A stretch of DNA of 18,808 nucleotides from the IMG/VR virus record IMGVR_UViG_2531839477_000015, positions 1 through 18,808 of that record; one strand, written 5' to 3'. Source of the stretch: a virus. Taxonomy: Duplodnaviria; Heunggongvirae; Uroviricota; Caudoviricetes. Shown here one piece after another: positions 1 to 17,861 of this stretch (the stretch's first letter is position 1; the number at the start of each line of letters is the position of its first letter). Position numbers and translations under genes: made by a program. The notes beneath the pieces are model-generated. The model worked only from the letters and a program-made list of their open reading frames with translations. It was not told where the DNA came from and ran no database searches.

Positions 1-1284
1 TTACTTCTTCGCCTCTGCAACCACTTTACTACCCACGCCGCGGTTATTGTATTCCCACATGCGGTTGTAGTTAGTGTCATTCAGATTGCGCTGTATTTCG
101 TCGTTATCATCTACGCTGCCGGTATTACCCGCAAACGGACGATTAGAGATCACCGCATCGGCCCACGGTTTAGCCGTGTTAAAACCTTCGTTGATGGCGC
201 TATCACGGATCACCACCTGACCGTTGGTATTGGCATCAACATCCAGCGAGCGGCCCAGTTGCGCCACACCATCACCGAAAGCATTGAAACGGCTGTTTAC
301 GGCGAGGAAACCGTAGTAAATGTTGGACAGCGTAGCCGGTGCAAACACATACGCTTCTTGCTGAGTACGTGAGTTCACCACGCGGAATTCGGTGTTATCG
401 AACACCACTGCGCCGCGACCAGAAACGATATCCACATCCCCTTCAATGTAGCTGTTGGTCACCAGCGTACGCGGCTGACGATTCGTTTCCAGACGGTTCT
501 GCACACCGCTGTTGGTGACAAAGAAGGTGTTCTGACGACCGAGAATGTTAACGTTGTTAATCTGTACCTGGTCACCATCAGTACGCAGTGCCACCGCCGG
601 ATGGTTACCTGCATCTACGCTATCGCCCAGCGTGTTTTCGATGGTCAGATTTTGCAGTTGCAGGCCATTGTTTTGTGACCAGAAGACCGCAGAGCAGAGA
701 ACACCGATACTGTCGCTGCGTTTGCTCTGGCAGCTATCGTACATATACCACGCTGGTTTACCTGGCATATATTTGCCGCGCGGGTTGACGTCGTGACGCC
801 AGTCGGCAGGGCTCATGCCACCATCAAGGGAAAGCCCAATCTTCACATCAATCGGTTTTTCACCTGTACCGTACAGAGTAATTCCACCCGGAGCGGCAGG
901 GACATATACCGTTCCCTGATACTCACCAGGCATCACGGCAATATACTGGCGCTTGTTGGTACGCTTGATAATTGCCGCATCTACCGCCGCCTGAATCGTG
1001 GTATGCGTTACACCTTGAGTGCCCGCCGGGCCGACAACAAAGTCAGGTTGCGCAGGCAGGGTAATCGGGGAAGGATTCCACGCTGCAGCACCTGGTGTCA
1101 GGGATGCAAAATAGTGTTGAGCATCGAAATTCTGCGCTTCTTTTGCCGACAGAATCGGGCGAGAAGAGGTACCAGGCGCGGTTTGATCAGAAGGACGTTG
1201 ATCGGGCGGGGTTGAGCTACAGGCGGTCAGCGTCACGCCAAAAGCCAATGCCAGCGCCAGACGGGAAACTGAAAATGTGTTCAC
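1..1284 (-). CDS. ybhC: YbhC outer-membrane lipoprotein (pectinesterase-fold acyl-CoA thioesterase); host gene flanking attB-lambda
   Basis: 427-aa ORF; GTG start at 1282-1284 with GGAG 6 nt upstream; signal peptide plus lipobox LTAC; recognised from memory as E. coli YbhC; stop TAA at 1-3. Confidence 0.9.
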   Translation of the reverse strand: MNTFSVSRLALALAFGVTLTACSSTPPDQRPSDQTAPGTSSRPILSAKEAQNFDAQHYFASLTPGAAAWNPSPITLPAQPDFVVGPAGTQGVTHTTIQAAVDAAIIKRTNKRQYIAVMPGEYQGTVYVPAAPGGITLYGTGEKPIDVKIGLSLDGGMSPADWRHDVNPRGKYMPGKPAWYMYDSCQSKRSDSIGVLCSAVFWSQNNGLQLQNLTIENTLGDSVDAGNHPAVALRTDGDQVQINNVNILGRQNTFFVTNSGVQNRLETNRQPRTLVTNSYIEGDVDIVSGRGAVVFDNTEFRVVNSRTQQEAYVFAPATLSNIYYGFLAVNSRFNAFGDGVAQLGRSLDVDANTNGQVVIRDSAINEGFNTAKPWADAVISNRPFAGNTGSVDDNDEIQRNLNDTNYNRMWEYNNRGVGSKVVAEAKK

Positions 1285-1330
1285 AGGTTGCTCCGGGCTA
1301 TGAAATAGAAAAATGAATCCGTTGAAGCCT

Positions 1331-1345
1331 GCTTTTTTATACTAA
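1331..1345. other. attL common core GCTTTTTTATACTAA
   Basis: Exact 15-bp lambda att core; left flank TTGAAGCCTGC matches the attB B arm, right flank GTTGGCATTATAAAAAAGCATTGCTTATCAATTTG matches the attP P' arm. Confidence 0.95.
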
Positions 1346-1418
1346 GTTGGCATTATAAAAAAGCATTGCTTATCAATTTGTTGCAACGAACAGGTCACTA
1401 TCAGTCAAAATAAAATCA
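1346..1418. promoter_or_regulatory. attL P' arm with Int arm-type binding sites
   Basis: Lambda P' arm sequence with tandem arm-type motifs CAGGTCACTAT / CAGTCAAAAT / AAAATCATTAT immediately before the int stop codon. Confidence 0.8.
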
Positions 1419-2489
1419 TTATTTGATTTCAATTTTGTCCCACTCCCTGCCTCTGTCATCACGATACTGTGATGCCATGGTGTCCGACTTATGCCCGAGA
1501 AGATGTTGAGCAAACTTATCGCTTATCTGCTTCTCATAGAGTCTTGCAGACAAACTGCGCAACTCGTGAAAGGTAGGCGGATCCCCTTCGAAGGAAAGAC
1601 CTGATGCTTTTCGTGCGCGCATAAAATACCTTGATACTGTGCCGGATGAAAGCGGTTCGCGACGAGTAGATGCAATTATGGTTTCTCCGCCAAGAATCTC
1701 TTTGCATTTATCAAGTGTTTCCTTCATTGATATTCCGAGAGCATCAACATGCAATGCTGTTGGGATGGCAATTTTTACGCCTGTTTTGCTTTGCTCGACA
1801 TAAAGATATCCATCTACGATATCAGACCACTTCATTTCGCATAAATCACCAACTCGTTGCCCGGTAACAACAGCCAGTTCCATTGCAAGTCTGAGCCAAC
1901 ATGGTGATGATTCTGCTGCTTGATAAATTTTCAGGTATTCGTCAGCCGTAAGTCTTGATCTCCTTACCTCTGATTTTGCTGCGCGAGTGGCAGCGACAGG
2001 GTTTGTTGTTATATGGCCTTCAGCTATTGCCTCTCGGAATGCATCGCTCAGTGTTGATCTGATTAACTTGGCTGACGCCGCCTTGCCCTCGTCTATGTAT
2101 CCATTGAGCATTGCCGCAATTTCTTTTGTGGTGATGTCTTCAAGTGGAGCATCAGGCAGACCCCTCCTTATTGCTTTAATTTTGCTCATGTAATTTATGA
2201 GTGTCTTCTGCTTGATTCCTCTGCTGGCCAGGATTTTTTCGTAGCGATCAAGCCATGAATGTAACGTAACGGAATTATCACTGTTGATTCTCGCTGTCAG
2301 AGGCTTGTGTTTGTGTCCTGAAAATAACTCAATGTTGGCCTGTATGGCTTCAGTGATTGCGATTCGCCTGTCTCTGCCTAATCCAAACTCTTTACCCGTC
2401 CTTGGGTCCCTGTAGCAGTAATATCCATTGTTTCTTATATAAAGGTTAGGGGGTAAATCCCGGCGCTCATGACTTCGCCTTCTTCCCAT
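1419..2489 (-). CDS. int: Lambda-type integrase (tyrosine recombinase)
   Basis: 356-aa ORF MGRRRSHERRDLPPNLYIRNNGYYCYRDPRTGKEFGLG...DKIEIK, recognised as lambda Int; adjacent to attL; 23-nt overlap with xis as in lambda. Confidence 0.97.
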   Translation of the reverse strand: MGRRRSHERRDLPPNLYIRNNGYYCYRDPRTGKEFGLGRDRRIAITEAIQANIELFSGHKHKPLTARINSDNSVTLHSWLDRYEKILASRGIKQKTLINYMSKIKAIRRGLPDAPLEDITTKEIAAMLNGYIDEGKAASAKLIRSTLSDAFREAIAEGHITTNPVAATRAAKSEVRRSRLTADEYLKIYQAAESSPCWLRLAMELAVVTGQRVGDLCEMKWSDIVDGYLYVEQSKTGVKIAIPTALHVDALGISMKETLDKCKEILGGETIIASTRREPLSSGTVSRYFMRARKASGLSFEGDPPTFHELRSLSARLYEKQISDKFAQHLLGHKSDTMASQYRDDRGREWDKIEIK

Positions 2490-2685
2490 TTCTGATCCTC
2501 TTCAAAAGGCTACCTGTTACTGGTCGATTTAAGTCAACCTTTACCGCTGATTCGTGGAACAGATACTCTCTTCCATCCTTAACCGGAGGAGGGAATATCC
2601 TGCACTCGCGTACCCATCGACGAACTGTTTCAAGGCTTCTTGGGCGTCGCTGGCGTGCGTTCCACTCCTGAAGTGTCAAGTACAT
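2467..2685 (-). CDS. xis: Excisionase
   Basis: 72-aa ORF MYLTLQEWNARQRRPRSLETVRRWVRECRIFPPPVKDGREYLFHESAVKV..., recognised as lambda Xis. Confidence 0.95.
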   Translation of the reverse strand: MYLTLQEWNARQRRPRSLETVRRWVRECRIFPPPVKDGREYLFHESAVKVDLNRPVTGSLLKRIRNGKKAKS

Positions 2686-2708
2686 CGCAAAGTCTCCGCA
2701 ATTACACG

Positions 2709-2733
2709 CAAGAAAAAACCGCCATCAGGCGGC
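2709..2733 (-). terminator. Intrinsic terminator on the minus strand, upstream of xis
   Basis: Minus-strand RNA AAGCCGCC-UGAU-GGCGG followed by UUUUUU (plus coordinates: stem 2719-2723/2728-2732, A-run 2712-2717). Confidence 0.5.
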
Positions 2734-2798
2734 TTGGTGTTCTTTCAGTTCTTCAATTCGAATATTGGTTACATTGTTTTCATATATGAATAAATAAA

Positions 2799-2978
2799 TT
2801 AGCTTTTTTCGTTGCCTTCGCGTTCTTTATTAATTTTGACAAAATCGTTTTTACCACGCTCTCCAAATGCGTCTTTAGAGTCGTTGTATCCGCAATCGCA
2901 GCACACATAATCATCAGACCATCCACGCATTGTTTTTTCTTTTGCAATATTTCCAGAACCGCATTTTGGACAAGACAT
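2799..2978 (-). CDS. Small zinc-ribbon protein (hypothetical)
   Basis: ATG at 2976-2978 preceded by GGAGG 7 nt upstream (the track's longer ORF begins at a TTG); two Cys pairs CPKCG...CCDCG; 59 aa. Confidence 0.55.
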   Translation of the reverse strand: MSCPKCGSGNIAKEKTMRGWSDDYVCCDCGYNDSKDAFGERGKNDFVKINKEREGNEKS

Positions 2979-3074
2979 ATCACTACCTCCAAAGCATGAG
3001 TGAGATGACAACGTAACATTGATTGGAGATTAACAATAGATTGCTGATGTAAAAGATATGTATAAGCTTCGCTT

Positions 3075-3707
3075 TCAAAGTGGAGGCTCTGGTAGCGGCA
3101 TCCAGTGTGACGGCTCACATACCCCCTCAACACCATTCATGTAAAAGAATTGAAATAACCCTTTACCTTTGTGAAACCCTACCATCTGCTCTTTTGTGTC
3201 TGAGCAATAAACCAAAACATCTTCTTCGCTTGGCATTCGCTCACTACAGCTTATCCAACCATCCGGAGTTACCGGAGAGTTGCCGGGTTCTTTAATGTGC
3301 AAGCGAGGCTCACCATCTTTTGGCTCAGGCCACTGGCGCTCCATGATAATCTTCAATTTATCTTCCATAGCAACGGTAATTTCAGCATCGCTGATGCCAG
3401 CACGGCGCTGTGCATCCCACAACAGAAACTGCATATCAGCCCACTCGCTAAGATCGTCTGGTTCGGCTGCGGCTTCCAGTGCCTCTTTTGAGAGATGTTT
3501 CAGCGGAACAATGGGGCCAACGCAGCCAAATGTGGAGTCAGACCATTTGGCATACTCGTGGCGAATCTGTTCGCGTTCCAGTGATGCCAGCGCAATTCGT
3601 GCCAGTTCTTCCGCTTCTTCTGCTGGCAGTACAACGTTGCTACCAGGTCCGTATGTTTCGCGCCACTGCTTGATTGTCAGTAGTCGCTCTTTGGTCATAG
3701 TGGTCAT
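3075..3707 (-). CDS. DUF551-like phage protein (hypothetical)
   Basis: Start trimmed to ATG 3705-3707 (MTTMTKERLL...) with AAGGAG upstream; C-terminus WISCSERMPSEEDVLVY...HWMPLPEPP resembles the DUF551 signature. Confidence 0.65.
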   Translation of the reverse strand: MTTMTKERLLTIKQWRETYGPGSNVVLPAEEAEELARIALASLEREQIRHEYAKWSDSTFGCVGPIVPLKHLSKEALEAAAEPDDLSEWADMQFLLWDAQRRAGISDAEITVAMEDKLKIIMERQWPEPKDGEPRLHIKEPGNSPVTPDGWISCSERMPSEEDVLVYCSDTKEQMVGFHKGKGLFQFFYMNGVEGVCEPSHWMPLPEPPL

Positions 3708-3708
3708 A

Positions 3709-4230
3709 TCACTCTCCTTTGATGCGAATGCCTGTTGCAATGCTGTTTATGATGCTGTCAGTGCATGGGGTAGAAAGCTGGGCATCTCCAGCAATTTTCA
3801 TGACCTCAACATCTGCATATCGAATACCGAGGTGTATCAGACCGGCTATGCCTGACTTAAGCCGAGCATTTTCCATAAATAGAACCTTTGCCCGCTGTTT
3901 TTCTGCTTCAAGCTCAACTCTCAGCTTCCCTACCGTTAGCGCAATCTCCTCGTTCTCCTGGTCGCGAGATTTGATGTATTGCTGGTTTCTTTCCCGTTCA
4001 TCCAGCAGCGCCTGCACTACTTCAGGGTTGAAAGCTGCGATATAACGAGCGTTGTTCTCTGCGTTGTTCTGTCCATCAAAGCCGGTCCATTTGATAACGT
4101 CTTCACATCGTTTATCACCAGGTGTATGCACCGCATATGTACCAGTACCAGACGAAATAAATGCGACCCATTCACCCTGTGTTGCCAGTTGCGCCGCCTC
4201 ACGCAGTGCCTGATAGTCAATCTTGCTCAC
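3709..4230 (-). CDS. Ead/Ea22-like protein
   Basis: GTG start at 4228-4230 with AAGGAGG 6 nt upstream; N-terminus SKIDYQALREAAQLATQGEW typical of Ead/Ea22-like prophage proteins; coiled-coil middle. Confidence 0.65.
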   Translation of the reverse strand: MSKIDYQALREAAQLATQGEWVAFISSGTGTYAVHTPGDKRCEDVIKWTGFDGQNNAENNARYIAAFNPEVVQALLDERERNQQYIKSRDQENEEIALTVGKLRVELEAEKQRAKVLFMENARLKSGIAGLIHLGIRYADVEVMKIAGDAQLSTPCTDSIINSIATGIRIKGE

Positions 4231-4522
4231 TGGTTGCCTCCTTTGCTGGGCTTTCGAATGTATCAAACTCAAACAACTTAACTACGTCATCAAACAGGAC
4301 ATAATCGCCATCAGAATCTTCAGTCATGTCAGCGCCACAATCCTGACCGAACGAGTCACAACCATCCATATCAAGCTCGTATCGCTTGAGTTTTGCGATA
4401 TTTGATAAATTCAGCGCCAGTACAGCAAGGTCATAAACCTCATCAGCGGTATACCCGGCACCATGCCCATACATTTCAATACGGGATATGATTTCTTCTA
4501 CACGTTGTTTTGTGATCGTCAT
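4217..4522 (-). CDS. Hypothetical acidic protein (101 aa)
   Basis: ATG at 4520-4522 with AGGAAGGTGAG upstream; co-oriented and tightly packed within the pL operon. Confidence 0.55.
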   Translation of the reverse strand: MTITKQRVEEIISRIEMYGHGAGYTADEVYDLAVLALNLSNIAKLKRYELDMDGCDSFGQDCGADMTEDSDGDYVLFDDVVKLFEFDTFESPAKEATSEQD

Positions 4523-4980
4523 TTTTGCTCACCTTCCTGTTCTTCCAGAAAAATACGCATAGCCTCAAGCATCTCTTCGGTGTCATACGGAGACAGCTTG
4601 TCACGCAGGATGTGTTCAATGCTGTTAATGAACTTGCGGATTGCTTTGCGTTCAATTTCAGCCAGGAAAGCGTCGGTGGCTTGGGTTTCAGTAACATCAT
4701 CTTCCCATTCGCTAAACTCCTCACGACAAAAGTCATTAAATTCCTTCTCAGATTGCTTAAGCGAGGTATTTTCAGCAGCCATCTTCGCGCATTTAGCCTC
4801 AAGGTTATCAATCGTGATTCCAGCAGAACGACACTCCCGCAACGCCGTTTCCAGTTTTGATTCAAGTTCGCCGAACTTACGGACAAGATATTCAGCGTTT
4901 GTTTCGTTAACCTTTAAATCACTTGGGATGCATTTACCTTTCAGAAAACCATCCATCTCAATTAGTGTCATTTGTTTCAT
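4519..4980 (-). CDS. Hypothetical coiled-coil protein (153 aa)
   Basis: ATG at 4978-4980; stop overlaps the next start; charged, helix-prone sequence. Confidence 0.55.
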
Positions 4981-5141
4981 TTCTTCCCACTCCGCAACAT
5001 CGCATTCAGATATTTGTTGTCGTTAACAGAACCGAAACTCTTTCTTTTAAGCAATTCCTCTCTCGATGGCATTGGCTTTACGCGTTGGCGAATAATCATT
5101 TCTGCCGGAAGAATGCCGGGATTGTATGCAAGTCCTCTCAT
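4979..5141 (-). CDS. Small ORF (53 aa), translationally coupled
   Basis: Not in the >=60-aa track. ATG 5139-5141 overlaps the upstream stop (ATGA) and its own stop overlaps the next ATG; translation [54 protein letters not shown]. Confidence 0.35.
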
Positions 5142-5428
5142 GATTTACTCTCCACGAACTGGTCAATAGCCATGCTAAGTGACATACCTAAAGCTTCGAT
5201 ATGCTGCTGAATATCCTGTAGCGTCCGCGCCTGAGATAACAGAATTTCACGGTTGCATAACTCTTTAACCAGATGCTCAAACTTGCTGTAATAACCGATA
5301 CGGCTTAGTGTTTCTTTCCCTGCATTCTCGCCTTCTTTGATAATTCCTCTTTCGCTAAGAATCAGATCGTGTTTGGTTCCGGTAATAACGTATTTTCCGA
5401 GGTCGATGTTTAGCTTCATTGTTTTCAT
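5138..5428 (-). CDS. Hypothetical protein (96 aa)
   Basis: Start trimmed to ATG 5426-5428 ([14 protein letters not shown]...) with GAGGAA 8 nt upstream; the track's longer ORF would overlap the upstream gene. Confidence 0.55.
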
Positions 5429-5438
5429 TGTTAATTCC

Positions 5439-5732
5439 TCAGTCATTACTGATAGCGCCATAGCGTGAGCGGTAATTACGCAGGCGCGGGTCAATTTCAG
5501 GGAAGTGGGTATATGTGGCTTTGCGGAATGGTCGGATTGATGTCTGGTAAATTCGCTCGCGTTCTTTTTTCTCTGCAAGCCATATACAGTGGCGAAATTC
5601 CTTTTCATCTTTCGTTTCCTGCGGTAGAGACATTATCCGATCGTAGTTTTTTCTGAATTTATCCAGCACCTCCGATACGGAATTGCCGGAACAGCGGCGC
5701 GCGTCGTCCGCACCATACAGAGGCGCTGGCAT
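5439..5732 (-). CDS. Hypothetical protein (97 aa)
   Basis: ATG 5730-5732 with GGAG 6 nt upstream. Confidence 0.55.
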   Translation of the reverse strand: MPAPLYGADDARRCSGNSVSEVLDKFRKNYDRIMSLPQETKDEKEFRHCIWLAEKKERERIYQTSIRPFRKATYTHFPEIDPRLRNYRSRYGAISND

Positions 5733-5745
5733 GATTTTCTCCTGA

Positions 5746-6225
5746 TTAAATTGCGTGAATAGCGTGACGAGGGAATGGGAGAGTTACTGGTTCCTCGTCT
5801 GGGTAGATAGGTTTGTTATGTTTGTGCCACTCGACATGACATGACTTGCAGAGCCACATCACATCGGTTGGTTTGCTGTAGTCGCAGTGGTGCGCCTGTG
5901 GTTTACATTCTGATCCGCAGCACTCACATTGTGGTGGTCGGATTAGCTTACCGTCGCGCAAAAAATTACCCACAATGATGTGGGCTTTTCTTTTCCATGG
6001 GTTGCTCTGAATGAACCGCTTTTTGGCTGCGTTACACCGTTCTCTTCCGCGTTCCGATGATTGATATTCTCTCCTTGCTGATACTCGATGTGGCAATCCA
6101 GCGCGTTCTTTGTCGTATTCAGCCAGGCAAGCCCGGCAAGCGGCAGTTAATCCATCTCTGGATGCTCTTCTGATTTGAAAGTCCCTTTCTTCCTTCTGTT
6201 GATGGCATCTTGAGCAGACTTTCAT
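5746..6225 (-). CDS. HNH-family endonuclease with extra Cys pairs
   Basis: C-terminal CECCGSECKPQAHHCDYSKPTDVMWLCKSCHVEWH fits the HNH/zinc-finger pattern; ATG 6223-6225 with GGAG upstream. Confidence 0.6.
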   Translation of the reverse strand: MKVCSRCHQQKEERDFQIRRASRDGLTAACRACLAEYDKERAGLPHRVSARREYQSSERGRERCNAAKKRFIQSNPWKRKAHIIVGNFLRDGKLIRPPQCECCGSECKPQAHHCDYSKPTDVMWLCKSCHVEWHKHNKPIYPDEEPVTLPFPRHAIHAI

Positions 6226-6234
6226 ATTCAGCTC

Positions 6235-6708
6235 CTAGAACGGAATATCCGAATCGTCAAAATCCATAGGTGGTTCGCTGTGATTCCCCTGCTGCTGAGA
6301 TTGCTGTCTTTGTTGCTGACCGTTATTTCGCTGAGGTGAAGACTGTTCATTGCCTCCTTGCTTGCCACCAAGCATTTTCATGGTTCCACCAACGCCCACG
6401 ATGACTTCGGTAGTGAACCTATCCTGTCCGCTTTGATCCTGCCATTTTCTTGTCCGTAATTTGCCTTCAAGATAAACCTCTGAGCCTTTTCGCAGATATT
6501 CGCTGGCAATTTCTGCCAGTTTCCCGCTCATTACCACGCGGTGCCACTCCGTCTGCTCCTTTTGCTCTCCAGTTTGCTTATCACGCCATTGTTCTGACGT
6601 AGCAACTGTAAGGTTTGCAAATGCCGTTCCTGATGGTGAATATCTGATTTCTGGATCATGCCCAAGGCGACCAATAATGATCACCTTATTTACGCCTCTA
6701 CTTCCCAT
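6235..6708 (-). CDS. ssb: Single-stranded DNA-binding protein
   Basis: N-terminus [23 protein letters not shown]...TEWHRVV, Gln/Gly-rich linker and C-terminal [12 protein letters not shown] tail, matching SSB. Confidence 0.93.
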
Positions 6709-7416
6709 TTATGCCGCCTGTTTTAGTTCGTTAACTCTGATGTTCATTACCTGAACGCATTTAGCCTGCGCCTCCTCGTTGCCAGCCATTAATTGCCAGT
6801 CACGCTGATAACGCTCGATGAGTTTTTTCTTGTCAGTTTCTGTTGATGCATAATCGCTGAAGTCTTTCAGGATTTGTTCGCAGTCAACCGATGGAGATTT
6901 CTGGTTGGTATTTTCTGGTGATGGTTTGTTATCTGATGCTGGGATTGCCCATCCCGGCAGCGATGGAGGGAGCCAGTAAAATCCTGTTCCATCCTTGAGT
7001 TTTGCCCTGTGCCATCCCTGCTTTTTATCGAGAGATGTTTGTGCGAAACCTTCCTCAAGGTTATACAGATACCGACCGATTCCCCACTGAACGGCAGCGC
7101 GCTTCATTGCACCGGAACGACCACCTTTGACGGCTTCTACCTGCGTGTTTTCAGCAGCATCCCATTTGGTTACCCATTCGGAATCAATCTTGATTGATAT
7201 GCCGCATTCAACTCCGCCGTTGTTGGGAATATCGCGGTATTCATTGCGCCATCCTGCTTTGCCGCAAACATCGTCCAGGCGTTTCATGATTGCCCTGTTC
7301 GTGACATAAGCCAGCACCATAGCCCACACCTTTCCATCGCGTGTTTTACCGCTTTGCTGTATTCGCCATTCGATATCTTCAGGGCTGAATGGCTCATCGA
7401 ATTTGTTCAAATCCAT
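6709..7416 (-). CDS. Rad52/22-type single-strand annealing protein (recombinase)
   Basis: Motifs NRAIMKRLDDVCGKAGW and GGRSGAMKRAAVQWGIGRYLY match the Rad52-family signature; sits directly upstream of ssb. Confidence 0.75.
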   Translation of the reverse strand: MDLNKFDEPFSPEDIEWRIQQSGKTRDGKVWAMVLAYVTNRAIMKRLDDVCGKAGWRNEYRDIPNNGGVECGISIKIDSEWVTKWDAAENTQVEAVKGGRSGAMKRAAVQWGIGRYLYNLEEGFAQTSLDKKQGWHRAKLKDGTGFYWLPPSLPGWAIPASDNKPSPENTNQKSPSVDCEQILKDFSDYASTETDKKKLIERYQRDWQLMAGNEEAQAKCVQVMNIRVNELKQAA

Positions 7417-7424
7417 AATTCACC

Positions 7425-7595
7425 TCAGAATGGACACGGCCCAAGGAAATAACGCTGATTTAATACTTCGACTCGTGACAAATTAAGGCATACCCGCATT
7501 CCTTCGCGGTCGCCATTATGGCGATACCAGAGAGCTTTCTGCGTGTACATGCGTCTCTGTAACTTGCTCTCCTTCACTGTGGTTGCAAGTGACAT
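7425..7595 (-). CDS. Small ORF (56 aa), alternative reading of the region
   Basis: ATG 7593-7595 with AAGGAG upstream; overlaps the 7516-7672 ORF in another frame, so at most one of the two is likely real. Confidence 0.2.
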   Translation of the reverse strand: MSLATTVKESKLQRRMYTQKALWYRHNGDREGMRVCLNLSRVEVLNQRYFLGPCPF

Positions 7596-7672
7596 GAATA
7601 TCTCCTTCGTTACCGATTAAATCTTTCATCTGACGAATGAATTCTTCGTCTGACCAGTTATCTGTAAAACTC
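7516..7672 (-). CDS. Small ORF (52 aa), coupled to the kil-like ORF
   Basis: ATG 7672-7674 overlaps the stop of the upstream ORF (ATGA); weak Shine-Dalgarno. Confidence 0.3.
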
Positions 7673-7823
7673 ATTTCCTGCGATACCACGGAAGGTTGAT
7701 AGCTGATTTCATCGCTTTATTTGCTTCAAGCCACATTTTTGAATCACCAATAAATCTGGCTATTACTGCTTTGTTTTGTGCAGCACGAAGCACCTGGTGA
7801 TTGATGGCTATTTCATTGCGCAT
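7671..7823 (-). CDS. kil: Kil-like small protein (putative FtsZ/cell-division inhibitor)
   Basis: 50-aa ORF; segment IARFIGDSKMWLEANKAM resembles the FIGDEKM core I recall from lambda Kil; lies between cIII-like and the recombination genes as in lambda; GGAGG upstream. Confidence 0.4.
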   Translation of the reverse strand: MRNEIAINHQVLRAAQNKAVIARFIGDSKMWLEANKAMKSAINLPWYRRK

Positions 7824-7942
7824 AACGCCTCCAGTTGTTTCTTTGCTGCTCTGATTAATTGTTTAACTCGGCGTGATAATTCAGATTCGTGCGGGTAGAA
7901 AGCGGACATGACGCCGCTACCCGCGAACTGAAAGTGCATCAT
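7808..7942 (-). CDS. cIII: CIII-like protein (putative FtsH inhibitor / CII stabiliser)
   Basis: 44-aa ORF MMHFQFAGSGVMSAFYPHESELSRRVKQLIRAAKKQLEALCAMK; pattern M-x-[FY]-x-[IF]-AG ... ESxLxRRxxxLxR resembles lambda CIII; GAAGGAG 6 nt upstream. Confidence 0.5.
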   Translation of the reverse strand: MMHFQFAGSGVMSAFYPHESELSRRVKQLIRAAKKQLEALCAMK

Positions 7943-8017
7943 GGGTAACTCCTTCTGTTTGATTGCATAACGAAAACGCCTCGAGTGAAGCGTTATTGGT
8001 ATGCGGTAAAGCCGCGC

Positions 8018-8329
8018 TTAGGCGGCTGATGTTTCTTCTTTCAGGCTTTCGAGATATTTACGTGGGTCGTCGTAACATTGGCATTCGCTATACCAATCCA
8101 CCCAGCGATCAGTAAGCCCCATATCTGATAAATCTTCATCGGTAAGGCTCTCATCCCACATCTCAAGGCCGTTAGCATTGCAGTAATCAGGCTTGATGTT
8201 GTTGTCATACTGAAAGGCGTCATAATCAGCCAGTGCGTCCATCAGGCGAACACCCTCTTCAACACTTGCCACTTCTACAATGAACGGCTTCATAGGTACT
8301 TGCGGGATATGCCAGACACGTAATTTCAT
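8018..8329 (-). CDS. Hypothetical acidic protein (103 aa)
   Basis: Start trimmed to ATG 8327-8329 (MKLRVWHIPQ...) with GGAGGA upstream. Confidence 0.55.
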   Translation of the reverse strand: MKLRVWHIPQVPMKPFIVEVASVEEGVRLMDALADYDAFQYDNNIKPDYCNANGLEMWDESLTDEDLSDMGLTDRWVDWYSECQCYDDPRKYLESLKEETSAA

Positions 8330-8341
8330 ATATCCTCCGTC

Positions 8342-8370
8342 AAAAAAATTGCCCTCACATTGGAGGGCAA
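8342..8370 (-). terminator. Intrinsic terminator (tL-type) on the minus strand
   Basis: Minus-strand RNA UUGCCCUC-CAAUGU-GAGGGCAA followed by UUUUUUU; stem 8351-8356/8363-8368, U-run from plus A-run 8342-8348. Confidence 0.6.
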
Positions 8371-8430
8371 AGAAGATTTCCAATAATCAGAACAAGTCGG
8401 CTCCTGTTTAGTTACGAGCGACATTGCTCC

Positions 8431-8458
8431 GTGTATTCACTCGTTGGAATGAATACAC
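8431..8458. repeat. Inverted repeat (9-bp arms GTGTATTCA/TGAATACAC, 10-nt spacer)
   Basis: Perfect 9-bp inverted repeat directly 3' of the 156-aa gene stop; no U-tract follows. Confidence 0.5.
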
Positions 8459-8472
8459 AGTGCTTATTCGTA

Positions 8473-8943
8473 CTAATAAAACACCCAGTTTTCTGTTTCT
8501 TGGTTGTGTCCAAAGTTATATTCAATATCTGGTGTTGATGTATCAATATTCTTAATCCCATCAACAAGAGTTGATACAACAGCCAAATCTTGTTTGATTC
8601 TCATCAAATGGTATTTCTTCCGGCGCAATAAACTTTCAATGGCAAGTTTCTTCGTCGGGAACGCAAAAGATCTTTCTGCATTTTTTGCTACTTTCTTAAT
8701 TGCATATCTATTTCTCCTTTGTTTCCATTCCTGTAACCACTGATTTGGTGCTGGTTTAAAATTAACAATCCAATGCGCAGGAACCAACCATGCATAATGC
8801 TCTGTCTGATGAAAAGCTATATATTGAAGTGCGCATATTTTTATCCCATCTTCTTCAACTGTCGCCTGGAATCTCCAGAAAACAGGCATTCCATCATGTT
8901 CAGTTTCTGATTCAGGAAAAGGTACGCTCCATGATTTTGTCAT
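8473..8943 (-). CDS. Hypothetical protein (156 aa), N-proximal moron
   Basis: ATG 8941-8943 with GAGGTGA upstream; no motif recognised; a 60-nt sample (8701-8760) counts 37% GC versus 55% in a 60-nt int sample (1441-1500). Confidence 0.6.
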   Translation of the reverse strand: MTKSWSVPFPESETEHDGMPVFWRFQATVEEDGIKICALQYIAFHQTEHYAWLVPAHWIVNFKPAPNQWLQEWKQRRNRYAIKKVAKNAERSFAFPTKKLAIESLLRRKKYHLMRIKQDLAVVSTLVDGIKNIDTSTPDIEYNFGHNQETENWVFY

Positions 8944-8997
8944 ATCTCACCTCAAATAAGTGGTTTGCTGCGAAAATAAATCCGCTTAAGTTACCTG

Positions 8998-9135
8998 TTA
9001 TTTATCCCACCAAGTTCCGGATCTATCTATCCAGTTACACCAATCATCGACACTCCATTTTGTTGTGTCGCATTTTGGCAACTGGCATGAATATCTACCT
9101 TCTTTGTAAAGTCGGCGTTTGACTTTCTTGAGCAT
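8998..9135 (-). CDS. Small Cys-containing ORF (45 aa)
   Basis: Not in the track. ATG 9133-9135 with GAGGTGA upstream; translation MLKKVKRRLYKEGRYSCQLPKCDTTKWSVDDWCNWIDRSGTWWDK. Confidence 0.3.
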   Translation of the reverse strand: MLKKVKRRLYKEGRYSCQLPKCDTTKWSVDDWCNWIDRSGTWWDK

Positions 9136-9143
9136 GGCTCACC

Positions 9144-9449
9144 TCAATCGTAATAAGCTGGAATTGATTTTCCGCGTTGCTTCTGGCGGCCTGAACAAGT
9201 CACACCCATTTCACTGCGTGGCTTGCGGTAGTAAATACGGTTCTGTTTACGCTCGACTTCTTCTGCCTTCTTGCAGCGAAGGCTTCCGAGTGATGCTGCT
9301 TTATCTGCTCTGACGCAACCAGAGAGCTTTAGCGCAATTTTTCGTGCCAGTCGCTGCTCTTGCATTGCCTGTTCACGTTGATCCTGTCTGCGTGCTCTGC
9401 GGCGATTTCTGGCGTTATCGTCAGCCAGATATGTAATGACTACTGTCAT
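9144..9449 (-). CDS. N: Antitermination protein N
   Basis: N-terminal arginine-rich motif NARNRRRARRQDQREQ and C-terminus KPRSEMGVTCSGRQKQRGKSIP matching lambda N (...KPGERGITCSGRQKIKGKSIP); GGAGG 5 nt upstream; nutL lies in its leader. Confidence 0.85.
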   Translation of the reverse strand: MTVVITYLADDNARNRRRARRQDQREQAMQEQRLARKIALKLSGCVRADKAASLGSLRCKKAEEVERKQNRIYYRKPRSEMGVTCSGRQKQRGKSIPAYYD

Positions 9450-9557
9450 GTTGACCTCCGATGATTGACTTTGGCGGTGACGCGCCGGGTGCTTATCTTC
9501 CGGTTGCCGTCGTGCAGCTGCACTTCACGTCACCCCAAAACCAACTACTCTTTGGTT

Positions 9558-9598
9558 CCCGCATTTCGGCGGGACAATCCCATCAATGTTAAAGAGCC
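9558..9598 (-). promoter_or_regulatory. nutL (boxA GCTCTTTAACA + boxB hairpin CCCGC-CGAAAT-GCGGG)
   Basis: Read on the minus strand: boxA at plus 9587-9597 and boxB at plus 9558-9573; the boxB 16-mer is identical to the one downstream of cro. Confidence 0.7.
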
Positions 9599-9644
9599 TG
9601 CCAATATGTTCCGTTTGGCTACCAAACGTCCTGCTGATGGCTAA

Positions 9645-9673
9645 AGAATACTGTAGGTATTTTATTGTGTAAA
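9645..9673 (-). promoter_or_regulatory. pL promoter (putative)
   Basis: On the minus strand: -35 TTTACA (plus 9668-9673), 17-bp spacer, -10 TATTCT (plus 9645-9650); overlaps the two operator palindromes. Confidence 0.5.
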
Positions 9674-9731
9674 TACCCAAGGTATTTATTTTTGATGAAA
9701 TAATGATAAGCAAATGAATACAAAGGATATT
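9646..9731. promoter_or_regulatory. OL operators (2 clear + 1 degenerate site)
   Basis: AATAC-N5-GTATT at 9647-9661 and 9672-9686 (the latter a perfect 17-bp palindrome AAATACC-CAA-GGTATTT); weaker AATAC-N5-ATATT at 9717-9731. Confidence 0.6.
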
Positions 9732-9817
9732 TATTTTTTCGGTGTCTGCTTGTTCAGTGCTTTTTATGCGGGATATGTGAAGTGGATCCCGATAGCTATT
9801 GCTGCCGGGATTATAGG

Positions 9818-10186
9818 TTAGTCAGCGAAGGTTAAGACGAGAATTACCTTAATGATATCTGCTACAACAGACACGGCCATAGATAAACCAAAGACAATCC
9901 AAGCCATATAGATGTCTTCACTACCATCGTATAGAGTTCCGTAATCACTGGTGTAAGGCGTAAATGTCGCGCCTTGATACAACAGGTATAAGCTTGAACC
10001 ATAGAGGATAAATGCAGATATCCCTTGTATTGCTATGATCACTAGAATCATGAAACGAGCTGATCTATGCGCCCAAGCCTGGCTTATTTTTTCTGATAGA
10101 GATTTCGCAATAAAAGCATGCGCTAAGCCGTAAATTGTCGAGATTGCCAACATCCCAAAAAAGCTTGCTATAGCGGTTCCAACCAT
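9818..10186 (-). CDS. Small polytopic membrane protein in the rex position (downstream of cI)
   Basis: Start trimmed to ATG 10184-10186 (MVGTAIASFFGML...) with AAGGGG upstream (the track start is TTG); three or four hydrophobic helices; no recognised family. Confidence 0.65.
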   Translation of the reverse strand: MVGTAIASFFGMLAISTIYGLAHAFIAKSLSEKISQAWAHRSARFMILVIIAIQGISAFILYGSSLYLLYQGATFTPYTSDYGTLYDGSEDIYMAWIVFGLSMAVSVVADIIKVILVLTFAD

Positions 10187-10203
10187 AATCGCCCCTTGCG
10201 TGA

Positions 10204-10920
10204 TCAAACCAGCCTTAGTTTTGTCTCAATTGCAACGCCTATAATCTTGCAGTTTCCATTGATTGGCACGAGAGGCCATGCAGGATTAAGTCCCTTGAGG
10301 TATTTATTTCCGCCGTCGATTATCAGCTTCTTGAATGTTGCTTCGTTAGAGTCAGAAAGTTTTGCTATGACCAAGCTGCCGTTGATCGCCTCCCTTCCGG
10401 TATCGAAAAGAACGAATGTTCCCTCTGGAATGCTTAACCCAACCGGTGCCGTCATTGAATCACCTTCCACTTTAAGCCAGAACGCATTACCTTGAATATG
10501 CGCGTCAGACTCAAGCCAAACATCTATGTCTTTAATGGTGTATGGTTCGCATGCTTCACACCACGAGCCAGCCTGGATACTGCTTAACACCGGATACCTC
10601 TTTCCTGCTCTGTATTCCCCTGCATACCTTACGTTGGCATCGCTCTTAAGGCTTTCTGCCTGTTCTGCAACCTTGGCAGCAATTGACTGGCTAAAATCAG
10701 CAATTGAGACTTGCAACAGTCGTGCAAAACCAGATGCAACCTCAACGTTTAGCGCGTTTCTGCCATTAAGATAATGCCCTACCGCTCCTTGGGTGATACC
10801 CAGTTCATCCGCGATTGAGTATTGGGTTATCCCCAATTCTTTCTTTTTTGACTCATACAAAGCCTTAAGCCGCTTAGCGTCTTCGAGCTGTTCTGTCGTC
10901 AGTGATTTTTTATTTTCCAT
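10204..10920 (-). CDS. cI: CI-type prophage repressor (HTH + LexA/S24-like autocleavage domain)
   Basis: N-terminus LTTEQLEDAKRLKALYESKKKELGITQYSIADELGITQGAVGHY parallels lambda CI; C-terminal domain with conserved Ser/Lys context (WLKVEGDSMTAP ... TFKKLI); divergent from cro across the operators. Confidence 0.93.
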   Translation of the reverse strand: MENKKSLTTEQLEDAKRLKALYESKKKELGITQYSIADELGITQGAVGHYLNGRNALNVEVASGFARLLQVSIADFSQSIAAKVAEQAESLKSDANVRYAGEYRAGKRYPVLSSIQAGSWCEACEPYTIKDIDVWLESDAHIQGNAFWLKVEGDSMTAPVGLSIPEGTFVLFDTGREAINGSLVIAKLSDSNEATFKKLIIDGGNKYLKGLNPAWPLVPINGNCKIIGVAIETKLRLV

Positions 10921-10931
10921 AGCTTAATTCT

Positions 10932-10996
10932 AATAGCTAAGGTACTTAAACTAAAAATACCCTGAGTATTGATTGCTTTGAATACCTGTAGTATTC
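10932..10996. promoter_or_regulatory. OR operators (OR3-OR2-OR1) with divergent pRM and pR
   Basis: AATAC-N5-GTATT at 10956-10970 and 10981-10995, degenerate AATAG-N5-GTACT at 10932-10946; centre spacing 24-25 bp; possible leaderless pRM with -10 TAGAAT (plus 10927-10932) about 7 nt before the cI ATG. Confidence 0.6.
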
Positions 10997-10997
10997 T
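10969..10997 (+). promoter_or_regulatory. pR promoter (putative)
   Basis: -35 TTGATT (10969-10974), 17-bp spacer, -10 TATTCT (10992-10997), the same -10 hexamer as pL; overlaps OR1/OR2. Confidence 0.55.
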
Positions 10998-11026
10998 TTG
11001 TTCATGGTTAATAACGGAGAGTGCAT

Positions 11027-11221
11027 ATGATTCGAATGACACTTGCCGATTACGCCAAAATCCATGGACAGGCTAAAGCAGCCAGTGACTTTGGTGTAAT
11101 CCAGTGCGCTATCAGCAAGGCCATTCTGGCAGGCCGTAACATTATGGTTACGGTAAAGCCTGATGGCAGTGTGATTGGAGAGGAGGTTCGTCCTTTCCCA
11201 AGCAACAAGAAAAACAAATAG
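11027..11221 (+). CDS. cro: Cro repressor
   Basis: [33 protein letters not shown]...[13 protein letters not shown] parallels lambda Cro (…YQSAINKAI…EEVKPFPSNKK); ATG 11027 with ACGGAGAG upstream. Confidence 0.85.
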
Positions 11222-11227
11222 TAACAC

Positions 11228-11270
11228 CGCTCTTTAACAGTCATGGTCCTCATTCCCGCCGAAATGCGGG
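11228..11270 (+). promoter_or_regulatory. nutR (boxA CGCTCTTTAACA + boxB CCCGC-CGAAAT-GCGGG)
   Basis: boxA 11228-11239 matches the boxA consensus; boxB hairpin 11255-11270; located 7 nt after the cro stop. Confidence 0.75.
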
Positions 11271-11329
11271 AATACAACGCGCATCAGTTGGTGCGCATAA
11301 CTTCTTATTTGTTAAGGAAATACTTACAT

Positions 11330-11608
11330 ATGCAACTTACAAGTACTCGCAAGAAAGCGAATGCAATTACAAGCAACATCCTAAATCGAATTGCTGTACG
11401 TGGTCAGCGAAAGGTTGCTGATGCATTAGGGATCAATGAATCACAAATTTCGCGATGGAAAGACAGCTTTATCCCAAAGATGGCCATGCTTCTGGCTGTT
11501 CTTGAATGGGGAGTTGTTGATGATGAGATGGCGAGACTTGCTCAGCAGGTGGCATCGATTCTCACAAAAGAAAAACGCCCAGCTGTTGGTAGCAGTCTGG
11601 ACGCTTAA
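11330..11608 (+). CDS. cII: CII transcriptional activator
   Basis: Start trimmed to ATG 11330 (upstream AAGGAAATACTTACATATG matches the lambda cII initiation region as recalled); ...SQISRWKDSFIPKMAMLLAVLEWGVVDDEMARLAQQVASILT parallels lambda CII. Confidence 0.9.
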   Translation: MQLTSTRKKANAITSNILNRIAVRGQRKVADALGINESQISRWKDSFIPKMAMLLAVLEWGVVDDEMARLAQQVASILTKEKRPAVGSSLDA

Positions 11609-11668
11609 GCACACTGTGTTACGCCAAGTAACAGGAGTAATTATGCCAGGACAAACCAAGCAAGTAAA
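11567..11668 (-). ncRNA. OOP-like antisense RNA (putative)
   Basis: Minus-strand hairpin CGUCCAG...CUGGGCG + UUUUUCUUUU inside the cII 3' end (plus about 11570-11600), analogous to the lambda oop terminator; possible promoter -35 TTGTCA (plus 11687-11692) and -10 TTTACT (plus 11663-11668). Confidence 0.3.
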
Positions 11669-12047
11669 CACCGGCATAAAGGCCGGTGACAAGTTCGAAA
11701 CCGTATATCCATTTATCTTCGTATGCACAGATTATCAGTCTTATGACGGCAACGTGCATACCGATGAGCGCTGGATTGGCGGTTGTCACAAAAATTATGA
11801 GCCAGCCGATTGTGGTTATGGTGATCAGTGTTTTTACACCGCTGATGCTGAAGGAAAGAGAATTCTTGAGGTTCTGGCAGTGGTGGAAATGCCAGGCAAC
11901 TGGCAGCGCAGAATCATTTATTCGTGCCACCTCATAGAGCCTGAAGGCAAGGAGAGGAAAGGAAGGAAGGCTTACACAGTCACCGAATCAAGGTTTTTAA
12001 AAATGTCTACTGGTTACTTCGCTGATTACGAAGTAGAGGAGGCTTAA
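11643..12047 (+). CDS. Hypothetical Cys-rich protein (134 aa) inserted between cII and O
   Basis: ATG 11643 with AGGAG 5 nt upstream (the track ORF is over-extended into cII); Cys/His-rich segment [40 protein letters not shown]; no family recognised. Confidence 0.6.
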
Positions 12048-12193
12048 TGACAAAACCACTCAGTCCTTACCAGGACAAAATTCACAAACACATACTACGT
12101 GATCGCTTCCTGTCCAGCTTCAAGCAGCCTGGTCGATTCCGGGCTGAGTTGGAAAAAGTGAAGCTGATGCAGAAGGAGAAAGGTCATGAGTAA
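12047..12193 (+). CDS. Small ORF (48 aa), translationally coupled
   Basis: Not in the track. ATG 12047 overlaps the upstream stop (TAATG) with GAGGAGG 5 nt upstream; translation [48 protein letters not shown]; 3' end overlaps the O-like start. Confidence 0.4.
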
Positions 12194-13046
12194 TCTTGCA
12201 ACCGTAACACATTTAAGGCCTTCACAACGGCCTGTGGAGCGTCGTGTGGCAGAAGTTGAAGATGGTTATACCCGTCTTGCAAATGCCCTGTATGAAGAGC
12301 TTATCGGCGCAGATTTAACGAAAAATCAGAGCAAGGTTGCCCACGCCATATGCCGTAAAACATACGGCTACGGTAAAAAGATGGATCGCATCTCTGATAG
12401 TCAGTTAGCTCAAATTACCAGGCTGCCAAGACAGAAGGTAAACAAGGCCAAGAATGAGCTTATCGCGATGAAGGTTATCCTTCGCGAAGGCCAGCAAATC
12501 GGGCCTAACAAGAACATCGAGGAATGGCAAATAGAAGGGTGTCACTACTCTGGTGATAATGTCACTGCATTGGTGACAAAAAGTGTCACCAAAACGGTGA
12601 CAGCGCTGTCACCAAAACAGGGACACACAAAAGAAACTATTACAAAAGAAAAAAGAAATAATAAAAACACTATGTCCGAAAGTGTTCGGACGGAGTGTGA
12701 AAAATCACATGACCGTCACGAAGAAACCGACAAGGCATTCGAGGAAATATTCTGGTGTGCAGGCATGCGGAAAGCCGGGAAGAAAAACGCAGCTTCGGCA
12801 TTCAGAACACAGTTCAGGGAATGGCGTAAAACTACCAGGGGTACGGCAAGCGAGTTTGCCACGATGCTGGCAGAAGACATCGCATGCAGGAATGGTAAGC
12901 AGTTCGGATTCGACAGGTTGTTACCATCGAGCTACCTGAACGGTCAACGCTGGAACGACGAGAAGCCAGAAACTATTCAACCACAATCCAAACCATCATC
13001 CGCAATCACCGTATCGAAAACTGGCTACGTGTTTTTCGACAGGTGA
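12186..13046 (+). CDS. Replication initiator, lambda O-like N-terminal domain with unrelated C-terminal domain
   Basis: N-terminal region [58 protein letters not shown]...GPNKNIEEW parallels lambda O; iterons inside the gene; C-terminal half not O-like. Confidence 0.85.
12551..12672. repeat. Putative ori: iteron cluster plus AT-rich tract inside the O-like gene
   Basis: Six alternating copies of GGTGACA/TGTCACC-type heptamers between 12551 and 12622 (tggtgataa, tgtcactgc, ttggtgacaaaaa, gtgtcaccaaaac, ggtgacagcgc, tgtcaccaaaac), followed by the A-rich tract 12628-12672. Confidence 0.6.
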
Positions 13047-13153
13047 ACCATGAAATCAAAAATCAAATCGCTACTGGTCGCTGGTTATAACCACGGCTGG
13101 TTAAGTATTTCGTTTGTCGATTTCTGGTTTAAAAATCTCAATCTGAGGGAATC

Positions 13154-13648
13154 ATGATGAGCCTTGAAGTTGGAGAATATATACCTGGTTATGAGGGTAA
13201 ATACTCTGTAACCAAAGACGGTCGTGTTTATTCACATTTAAGAGGCAGGTTTTTGAATCCATCTCCGGATAACAAGGGTTATCTAAGAGTCACTTTGTGT
13301 TCCGATGGGATTCAGAAGACGTTAAAAGTTCATCGTCTTGTAGCTCAATTATTTATCCCAAATCCGTATTGCAAGCCAGAAGTAAATCATATCAACGGCG
13401 ACAAATCGGATAACGCCATTTGGAACTTGGAATGGTGTACCTGCTCAGAGAATTTAAAACATGCTTTTAGCATCGGACTGAAAAGCGCAAAGGGAGTTTT
13501 TAATGGTAGGGCAAAACTATCTGAAACTGATGTGATTGATATCAGGAATTCTGTTGGTATGAAACTAAGCGAACTATCCACTAAATACGGAGTGAGTGAA
13601 ATGCAAATTTCCACAATCCGCAGAGGAAACGCATGGAGGCACCTTTGA
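13154..13648 (+). CDS. HNH homing-type endonuclease (NUMOD4-like N-terminus, HNH_3 core, C-terminal HTH)
   Basis: YIPGYEGKYSVTKDGRVYS...HRLVAQLFIPNP...VNHINGDKSDNAIWNLEWCTCSEN; by-eye AT-rich; sits between the O-like gene and the primase-helicase. Confidence 0.8.
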   Translation: MMSLEVGEYIPGYEGKYSVTKDGRVYSHLRGRFLNPSPDNKGYLRVTLCSDGIQKTLKVHRLVAQLFIPNPYCKPEVNHINGDKSDNAIWNLEWCTCSENLKHAFSIGLKSAKGVFNGRAKLSETDVIDIRNSVGMKLSELSTKYGVSEMQISTIRRGNAWRHL

Positions 13649-15525: not shown

Positions 15526-15554
15526 ATGACCATCTACATCACTGAGCTAATAAC

Positions 15555-15586
15555 AGGCCTGCAGGTAATCGCAGGCCTTTTTATTT
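15555..15586 (+). terminator. Intrinsic terminator (tR2-equivalent) after the replication genes
   Basis: Perfect 8-bp stem AGGCCTGC/GCAGGCCT (15555-15562 / 15571-15578), 8-nt loop, then TTTTTATTT. Confidence 0.8.
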
Positions 15587-15602
15587 GGGGGAGAGGGAAG
15601 TC

Positions 15603-17138: not shown

Positions 17139-17311
17139 GGCGACAGCGACGAAGTTTCACCGACATCATCTGCGAAAACTGCAAATACCTTCCAACGAAA
17201 CGCTCCAGAAATAAACGCAAGCCAATCCCAAAAGAATCTGACGTAAAAACCTTCAATTACACAGCTCACCTGTGGGATATCCGGTGGCTAAGATATCGTG
17301 CGAGGAAATGA
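17135..17311 (+). CDS. ninE: NinE
   Basis: [58 protein letters not shown] matches lambda NinE as recalled; AGGAGG 5 nt upstream; ATGA overlap with the methyltransferase stop. Confidence 0.85.
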
Positions 17312-17313
17312 CA

Positions 17314-17842: not shown

Positions 17843-17861
17843 AAGAGGGGATTATTAAGGC

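Follow-up and report, generated by a model that had tools for sequence, protein, structure and literature searches.

An eight-gene block beside xis in a lambda/P22-mosaic prophage very probably joins abc2 to a seven-gene ea/exo-xis accessory region

A closely packed run of eight genes beside xis in a lambdoid prophage raises the question of whether these are accessory genes of no assignable function tied together in translation, as an initial annotation of the sequence had proposed, or a phage region of a familiar kind. The genes occupy positions 2799 to 5732, on the minus strand, of an 18,808-nucleotide (nt) stretch of Caudoviricetes DNA (IMG/VR record IMGVR_UViG_2531839477_000015, positions 1 to 18,808), hereafter called the window, which is the left arm of a lambdoid prophage integrated at attLambda beside ybhC. 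They form the promoter-distal part of the early-left (pL) operon, and we consider it highly probable that the block is the distal pL operon of a lambda/P22-mosaic prophage at attLambda, consisting of abc2 and a seven-gene ea/exo-xis accessory region. The region type, its genes and near-identical copies of it are already known, since this is the classical ea/exo-xis region plus abc2. The finding is therefore mainly a correction of annotation: the block is not a set of eight pure unknowns, and the statement that none of its members has an assignable function is wrong for about half of them (the Abc2, Oad2-like, EaA-like and Ea22-like proteins).

The eight co-oriented genes are real. Each of the eight matches a PHROG family (E values from 5e-31 to 8e-63), and the refined starts are those that RefSeq gives for a 99.3%-identical block in Escherichia coli strain 81; four of the gene spans given earlier were longest-open reading frame artefacts that began at upstream TTG or ATG codons. 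Plus-strand "shadow" open reading frames (ORFs) within the block were rejected, as they lack credible family support.

Abc2 is the last gene of the recombination module

Abc2, encoded at the promoter-proximal end of the block, was matched by PF11043 over its entire length (1-97 of 97, E 7e-62) and by phrog_656, aligned end to end with the chain of P22 Abc2, solved on RecBCD, in PDB 8B1T/8B1U (residues 1-97, E 2e-56), and is 91% identical to P22 Abc2. The proline at position 68 (the PpiB site), which sits in the active site of PpiB when RecBCD, Abc2 and PpiB form a complex (PMC9836394), is kept in the context IRPFRK. P22 Abc2 binds RecC and leaves the helicase active while abolishing the Chi response; a proposed consequence is that RecBCD is redirected towards loading of the phage annealing protein (PMC9836394; PMC12315714). 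By analogy with this 91%-identical protein, the Abc2 of the window would bind RecC and bring about the loss of the Chi response, so that a Chi-responsive nuclease that degrades the phage would come to assist its annealing protein. Among the steps of the mechanism outlined here, this is the one based on a near-identical characterised protein; the other functions are proposed at the level of the protein family.

The genes for the annealing protein, a single-stranded DNA-binding protein (SSB) and an HNH nuclease lie directly upstream of abc2, and this combination of an anti-RecBCD protein, SSB, a nuclease and a strand-annealing protein fits the "ES18-type" module of PMC12315714. Functionally, abc2 is thus the last gene of the recombination module and not an accessory gene. 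Because it belongs to that module, the earlier placement of all eight genes between xis and the recombination genes was off by one gene. As a separate observation, the C-terminal 79 amino acids (aa) of the annealing protein are 63% identical to the C terminus of P22 Erf, while the Erf annealing core is different; the shared Erf-like C terminus may be a partner-interaction tail, with SSB or Abc2-RecBCD as conceivable partners.

The block lies at the distal end of a pL operon

An uninterrupted run of minus-strand genes extends from the N-like antiterminator gene to int, all of it downstream of a pL-like promoter (Table 1), and homologues of P22 gene 17, cIII and kil are also encoded between the N-like gene and the block. 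A scan for sigma-70-like promoters on the minus strand from 2300 to 6400 found none, and an Rfam search identified no RNA family in the window. The co-orientation of the genes, the pL-like promoter, the lack of an internal promoter and the terminator at the distal end bear out the part of the earlier proposal that placed the block in one pL-driven unit. After infection or induction, an N-antiterminated transcript from pL would cross cIII, kil, the annealing gene, the SSB and HNH genes and then the block, and it would be expected to stop at the hairpin at 2735-2716, before pI, xis and int, unless it is antiterminated.

Table 1. Coordinates of the block, its non-coding elements and the surrounding genes in the window
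Feature	Position	Strand	Remarks
ybhC	1-1284		adjoins the lambda attachment site
int, lambda-type	1419-2489	minus	99% identical to lambda Int
xis	2467-2685	minus	99% identical to lambda xis
Module-boundary linker with intrinsic terminator	2705-2772	minus	stem-loop 2735-2716 and T6 run
eaG	2799-2978	minus	59 aa
Non-coding spacer	2979-3074	minus	96 nt, upstream of eaG
EaA-like gene	3075-3707	minus	210 aa
Ead/Ea22-like gene	3709-4230	minus	173 aa, GTG start
101-aa gene	4217-4522	minus	very acidic, isoelectric point 4.05
EaE/Oad2-family gene	4519-4980	minus	153 aa, acidic
DUF2737 gene	4977-5141	minus	54 aa, basic, isoelectric point 10.7
DUF5405 gene	5138-5428	minus	96 aa (not 156), or 93 aa from a second ATG at 5419
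abc2	5439-5732	minus	97 aa
HNH nuclease gene	5746-6225	minus	in the recombination module
SSB gene	6235-6708	minus	in the recombination module
Rad52/22-family strand-annealing protein gene	6709-7416	minus	
Gp33 homologue ORF	7519-7674	minus	52 aa, 86.5% identical to HK446 Gp33
N-like antiterminator gene	9144-9449	minus	
pL-like promoter	9673-9645	minus	
cI-type repressor gene	10204-10920		
cro	11021-11221		divergent

Three further proteins of the block can be assigned to families with described functions

The 153-aa protein is, by its sequence, firmly a member of the EaE/Oad2 family. It matched phrog_614 (E 6e-59) and, in a BLASTP comparison with HK446 gp27 (Oad2), gave an E value of 1e-58 and 56% identity over 165 columns, the similarity being uneven, with about the first 64 residues near-identical and the C-terminal half diverged. 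The identity is 72% to the HK75 homologue, 82% to HK620 HkaH and 59% to P22 EaE over residues 60-113. The protein is laid out as a conserved 42-aa head, a coiled coil, an 11-letter linker and a variable tail, and its last 26 to 40 residues or so are absent from the sequenced phages of our collection. Its gene occupies the same slot as HK446 gp27, directly after DUF2737. Oad2 is reported to bind P2 OLD directly and to block its activation as a tetramer, and the same work notes a relationship with P22 EaE and occasional fusions to HNH or EaD/Ea22 proteins (bioRxiv 10.64898/2026.07.10.737580); P2 OLD is a nuclease that sets off abortive infection once RecBCD has been impaired. The 153-aa protein would most likely neutralise an OLD-type or similar sensor, and its small neighbours may likewise act against host systems that detect interference with RecBCD. 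The HK75 homologue, 54% identical to Oad2, is reported to be inactive against P2 OLD (bioRxiv 10.64898/2026.07.10.737580), and the 72% identity of the 153-aa protein to this inactive copy makes an activity against P2 OLD specifically doubtful.

HK446 Gp33 is reported to be sufficient to trigger the P2 OLD nuclease (2026 preprint). The Gp33 homologue of the window lies between kil and the annealing gene, where P22 has arf. A 56-aa ORF at 7425-7595 had been considered for this role and was rejected, the overlapping ORF in Table 1 being the one that matches.

The Ead/Ea22-like protein was matched by PF13935 over the full profile (1-139 of 139, E 3e-37). It is 44% identical to residues 1-113 of lambda Ea22, which cover the N terminus and coiled coil, and 58% identical to P22 EaD over residues 52-113; the similarity to lambda Ea22 ends at residue 113, the C-terminal 60 residues or so being different, and a PDB search with the protein returned no hit at E <= 1, including the lambda Ea22 C-terminal domain solved by nuclear magnetic resonance. 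The Ea22 proteins of lambda and of Shiga toxin (Stx) phages favour lysogeny, and the family is known to swap its C-terminal domains, DUF551 among them. By analogy, the Ead/Ea22-like protein probably has a role in the lysis-lysogeny decision, which it would bias as lambda Ea22 does.

The EaA-like protein has two domains, PF04447 (formerly DUF550) at residues 48-143, matched at E 1e-38 with 131.6 bits against a cutoff of 23 and covering profile positions 1-96 of 97, and DUF551 (PF04448) at residues 150-209 (E 2e-18). It is 53% identical to P22 EaA, and an identical protein is encoded on 53 contigs. Residues E75, E78, E88 and D91 fit the ExxE...ExxE/D pattern of acidic metal-binding residues in MazZ enzymes, are candidate counterparts of MazZ E35/E38/E50/E53, and are invariant in 30 homologues, all of them at least 82% identical to the query. 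A PF04447 member from Acinetobacter phage SH-Ab 15497 takes part in the Z-genome pathway by hydrolysing dATP and dGTP. Pyrophosphohydrolase activity of the EaA-like protein is thus probable on sequence grounds, and the PF04447 domain would hydrolyse dATP, dGTP or related nucleotides, either adjusting nucleotide pools or removing a nucleotide signal. A scan of ORFs over the 18.8-kb window, which is less than the whole prophage, turned up neither purZ nor datZ; the enzyme, if active, would therefore serve another purpose.

The block resembles the early-left regions of P22, HK446, lambda and HK620

The P22 ea region (abc2-orf56-eaE-orf45-eaF-eaD-eaI-eaA-eaG-eaC-xis-int) has the same position in the pL operon and the same orientation as the block, and ends in an identical terminator hairpin. 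It differs in gene content, as the window lacks P22 orf45, eaF, eaI and eaC and has the DUF5405 and 101-aa genes instead, and in its neighbours, as the window combines lambda-type integration with a Rad52-like/SSB/HNH recombination set where P22 has erf, arf and abc1. Over its promoter-proximal half the block has the gene order of HK446, in which gp30-gp29-gp28-gp27 correspond to abc2-DUF5405-DUF2737-EaE/Oad2, with the first three proteins 96-97% identical, and which also carries Gp33 upstream; gp27 is the last HK446 gene before xis, whereas the window has four more genes there. The exo-xis region of lambda (orf60a, orf63, orf61, orf73, ea22, ea8.5), on which a separate literature exists, has the same location, from the recombination genes to xis, and shares with the window an Ead/Ea22-family gene and a terminator linker of about 60 nt. 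The window lacks orf60a, orf61, orf63 and ea8.5, and lambda uses Gam, not Abc2. In HK620, identities to the block proteins range widely, at 94% for HkaJ (Abc2), 93% for HkaI, 82% for HkaH, 47% for HkaG, 31% for HkaE and 95% for HkaD, while in strain 81 the genes from eaG through DUF2737 are almost unchanged relative to the window. Both HK620 and strain 81 lack DUF5405 and carry the region beside a torI-type excisionase at another attachment site.

Several points weigh against reading the block as a distal pL operon that joins abc2 to accessory genes with the activities proposed above. The single-transcript and antitermination steps rest on homology to lambda and P22 together with the architecture of the locus. 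Functional evidence is limited to four of the eight genes. By sequence, the 153-aa protein is closer to the copy that is inactive against P2 OLD (72%) than to the active Oad2 (56%). The enzymatic role of the EaA-like protein is a family-level assignment: the characterised SH-Ab 15497 enzyme was too distant to be detected by tblastn, a PDB sequence search found no relative, and the AlphaFold2 (AF2) model, built on a shallow alignment of 30 sequences, showed helices in the PF04447 domain, for which an all-alpha MazG/HisE fold would be expected, and had a mean predicted local distance difference test (pLDDT) score of 49.8, unusable for a fold search.

The accessory genes are exchanged as modules at conserved linkers

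We compared 82 Abc2 loci (80 from an Abc2 search, plus HK620 and strain 81), of which 57 had enough downstream sequence for their gene content to be read. DUF2737 followed abc2 in all 82, with DUF5405 inserted between the two in 17. Downstream content varied among the 57 loci: 13 had eaG and 4 the 101-aa gene, while Ea22-like and EaA-like sequences were matched over their full length in 14 and 11. In a set of 77 loci collected through DUF2737 instead, abc2 lay upstream in 68 and a RecT-type module took its place in 9. An obligate abc2-DUF2737 pair was therefore rejected; DUF2737 marks the first slot after any recombination module and is not a partner of Abc2.

In the slot after DUF2737, the 42-aa head was shared by 115 of 151 loci, representing 79 distinct proteins and at least 23 tail clusters, and head and tail were often joined through a conserved 10-letter motif. 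The head of the 101-aa protein is elsewhere joined to variable tails through the same linker motif in a 12-letter form. Matches to parts of the block came from 3625 E. coli genomes (of 5426) and 608 phage records, and none of the complete E. coli genomes or sequenced phages in the collections covered 80% or more of it, a pattern typical of lambdoid mosaics. The 99.3%-identical block of strain 81 adjoins a different integration module. Taken together, these comparisons suggest that the region likely evolves by module exchange at conserved linkers, namely the terminator linker on the left, DUF2737 on the right and in-frame junctions within the EaE, Ea22 and 101-aa families. A further observation, made on homologues of the 101-aa protein and on the related loci, is that the EaE/Oad2, Ea22 and 101-aa families are all built of a conserved head, a 12-letter linker and a variable tail ending ...RKGGNQ or ...RKEAAQ.

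The description of the region in the initial annotation as a reservoir of host-interaction genes was broadly right: in recent literature, genes for host interaction and anti-defence are described as concentrated in this part of lambdoid genomes, and a link between such an anti-defence hotspot and the phage recombination genes is beginning to emerge. An extension of this idea, which we put forward tentatively and consider rather doubtful as a whole, is that the block is a stacked counter-defence island built on the recombination module, whose head-linker-tail proteins are each directed at a guard of their own. In this scheme Abc2 and the Gp33-like protein would tamper with RecBCD and so trip guards such as OLD, retrons and Gabija-like systems; the Oad2-like 153-aa protein, the 101-aa protein and the Ea22-like protein would each neutralise one guard; in-frame tail swaps at the conserved 10-letter linker would retarget the inhibitors, with DUF2737 as a constant helper. 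The head/linker/tail mosaicism does suggest a way in which inhibitors could be retargeted. Beside the known genes, the counter-defence candidates of the block are DUF2737, DUF5405, the 101-aa protein, EaG and the Oad2 variant with its new tail.

The gene junctions are tight, as is ordinary for phages

Four of the seven internal junctions overlap. Three are ATGA overlaps, at 5141-5138, 4980-4977 and 4522-4519, and the fourth is a 14-nt overlap at 4230-4217; the first of these had been noted correctly, and the second had been placed at 4979-4981. The remaining three junctions do not overlap, being separated by 1 nt (3708), 10 nt (5438-5429) and 96 nt (3074-2979). A separate Shine-Dalgarno sequence precedes the start of each of the eight genes at a distance of 5-10 nt. 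The flanking genes of the operon are equally tight (gaps of 0, 9 and 13 nt), and the annotated ea and nin regions of P22 show a similar mix, including 4-nt overlaps, a 10-nt gap after abc2 and a 96-nt gap before eaG. The tight packing is genuine but ordinary for phages, and re-initiation at the overlaps is possible without being required, because with a Shine-Dalgarno sequence at every gene independent initiation is equally possible. The pL unit stands, and the translational coupling that had been read from the overlaps does not follow from them.

These junctions bear on the view taken in the initial annotation, that the block consists of eight function-less accessory genes obligatorily coupled in translation. 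The four overlapping junctions, the common orientation with no promoter-like site inside the block and the four genes of no known function (so that confident annotation does not reach every member) are what this view would lead one to expect. It is nevertheless unlikely: the Abc2, Oad2-like, EaA-like and Ea22-like proteins are assignable, three junctions do not overlap and every gene has a Shine-Dalgarno sequence to itself, and relatives gain and lose individual genes, as the counts for DUF5405 (17/82), the 101-aa gene (4/57) and eaG (13/57) illustrate. Genes that come and go singly argue against an obligatory co-translated unit and leave the distal pL operon, with abc2 and separately exchanged accessory genes, as the reading we prefer.

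The small proteins after abc2 have family matches but no assigned function

The DUF5405 protein was matched by PF17399 (E 2.5e-5, above the curated cutoff) and by phrog_154, and is 97% identical to HK446 gp29. Its AF2 model (pLDDT 88.8) shows a four-stranded sheet and two helices. A search with the model found no PDB neighbour, and its matches in BFVD were uncharacterised proteins of phages of Gram-negative and Gram-positive hosts, bar one bearing an unverified "replication initiation protein" label. The same label attached to phrog_154 was rejected for DUF5405, given the lack of a PDB neighbour and of characterised BFVD matches. The DUF2737 protein matched PF10930 (E 6e-30) and is 74% identical to P22 orf56 and 93% to HK620 HkaI. 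The 101-aa protein matched phrog_3126 (E 8e-63) and had 267 homologues, all unnamed, listed from E. coli, Salmonella and phage contigs; searches of Pfam, PDB and PADLOC with it returned no match. PDB sequence searches gave nothing significant for six of the seven block proteins tried (all but DUF2737). We regard the DUF2737, DUF5405, 101-aa and EaG proteins as putative host-protein binders, that is, most likely further small proteins that would act on the host.

The phrog_154 label, together with the constant position of DUF2737 after abc2 (82/82 loci), could be taken to mean that DUF5405, DUF2737 and other genes after abc2 are unrecognised replication or recombination factors. This is distinctly improbable, as the label appears on individual records only (Salmonella phage 103203_sal5, phiKT and HK446 gp29), none of which has evidence or a PDB match behind it, DUF2737 also follows RecT-type modules that lack abc2, and these genes were not among the module members in a 2025 survey that took in 325 lambdoid Rec modules (PMC12315714). 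The reading of the genes after abc2 as part of an accessory region is the one we retain.

The eaG cassette and the terminator linker bound the block on the left

EaG is a 59-aa four-cysteine zinc ribbon (phrog_2945) that is 95% identical to both P22 EaG and HK620 HkaD. Its zinc-ribbon matches, to archaeal zinc-finger proteins (HVO_2753) and to Lar, are sub-threshold throughout, and an identification as the restriction alleviator Lar (PF14354) was rejected because the match, at 23.0 bits against a cutoff of 28.6, covers the generic zinc-ribbon part only. Compared across the window, strain 81, HK620 and P22, the eaG cassette, which comprises the 96-nt spacer, the ORF and the 3' region, keeps an identity of 97-100%. 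Within it the spacer is invariant, bar two substitutions at its ends in P22, one by the EaA stop and one just before the eaG start. No promoter or structured RNA appears to be hidden in this spacer, which contains no promoter-like site and gives an RNA z score of +0.58. As an observation in its own right, the non-coding DNA on both sides of eaG hardly changes between E. coli prophages and P22, while the eaG coding sequence has a few substitutions.

The linker between eaG and xis carries a strong intrinsic terminator and directly precedes the lambda-type pI/cII box and xis. Its hairpin was found by a terminator scan and has a centroid energy of -12.2 kcal/mol (z = -2.7). About 60 nt (window positions 2709-2770 or so) are identical in lambda, where they lie just before the cII box of pI, and P22, HK620 and strain 81 share the linker unchanged as far as the T-run, beyond which their sequences part. 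Among 162 related loci it was present in about 100, regardless of whether they had eaG, and it forms the boundary to three different integration modules.

That the block is instead a prophage defence or superinfection-exclusion island of morons expressed in the lysogen, as the compact and highly conserved eaG cassette with its 96-nt spacer and own terminator and the frequent presence of defence genes near int in lambdoid prophages might suggest, is very implausible, for PADLOC found no defence family in any of the eight proteins, the coding strand of the block has no sigma-70-like promoter, the eaG spacer included, the genes lie inside the repressor-controlled pL operon, and the characterised homologues (Abc2 and Oad2) act for the phage against host systems.

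Other genes of the window

A 156-aa ORF at 8473-8943 on the minus strand (phrog_1636, function unknown) lies between the N-like gene and the gene 17 homologue, in the stretch of lowest GC content in the window (0.37 over 8501-9000), and looks like a recently acquired insert. The window holds three HNH endonuclease genes in 18.8 kb, at 5746-6225 (minus), 13154-13648 (plus) and 16012-16614 (plus); the first lies inside the recombination module, and the other two are of the homing type (NUMOD4/HNH_3) and interrupt the replication and nin regions. A 129-aa ORF at 9818-10207 (minus; phrog_6534, function unknown) overlaps the stop of the cI-type repressor gene by 4 nt and probably shares a transcript with that gene in the lysogen, in the position of rexA/rexB, which makes it a candidate for an exclusion gene expressed by the prophage.

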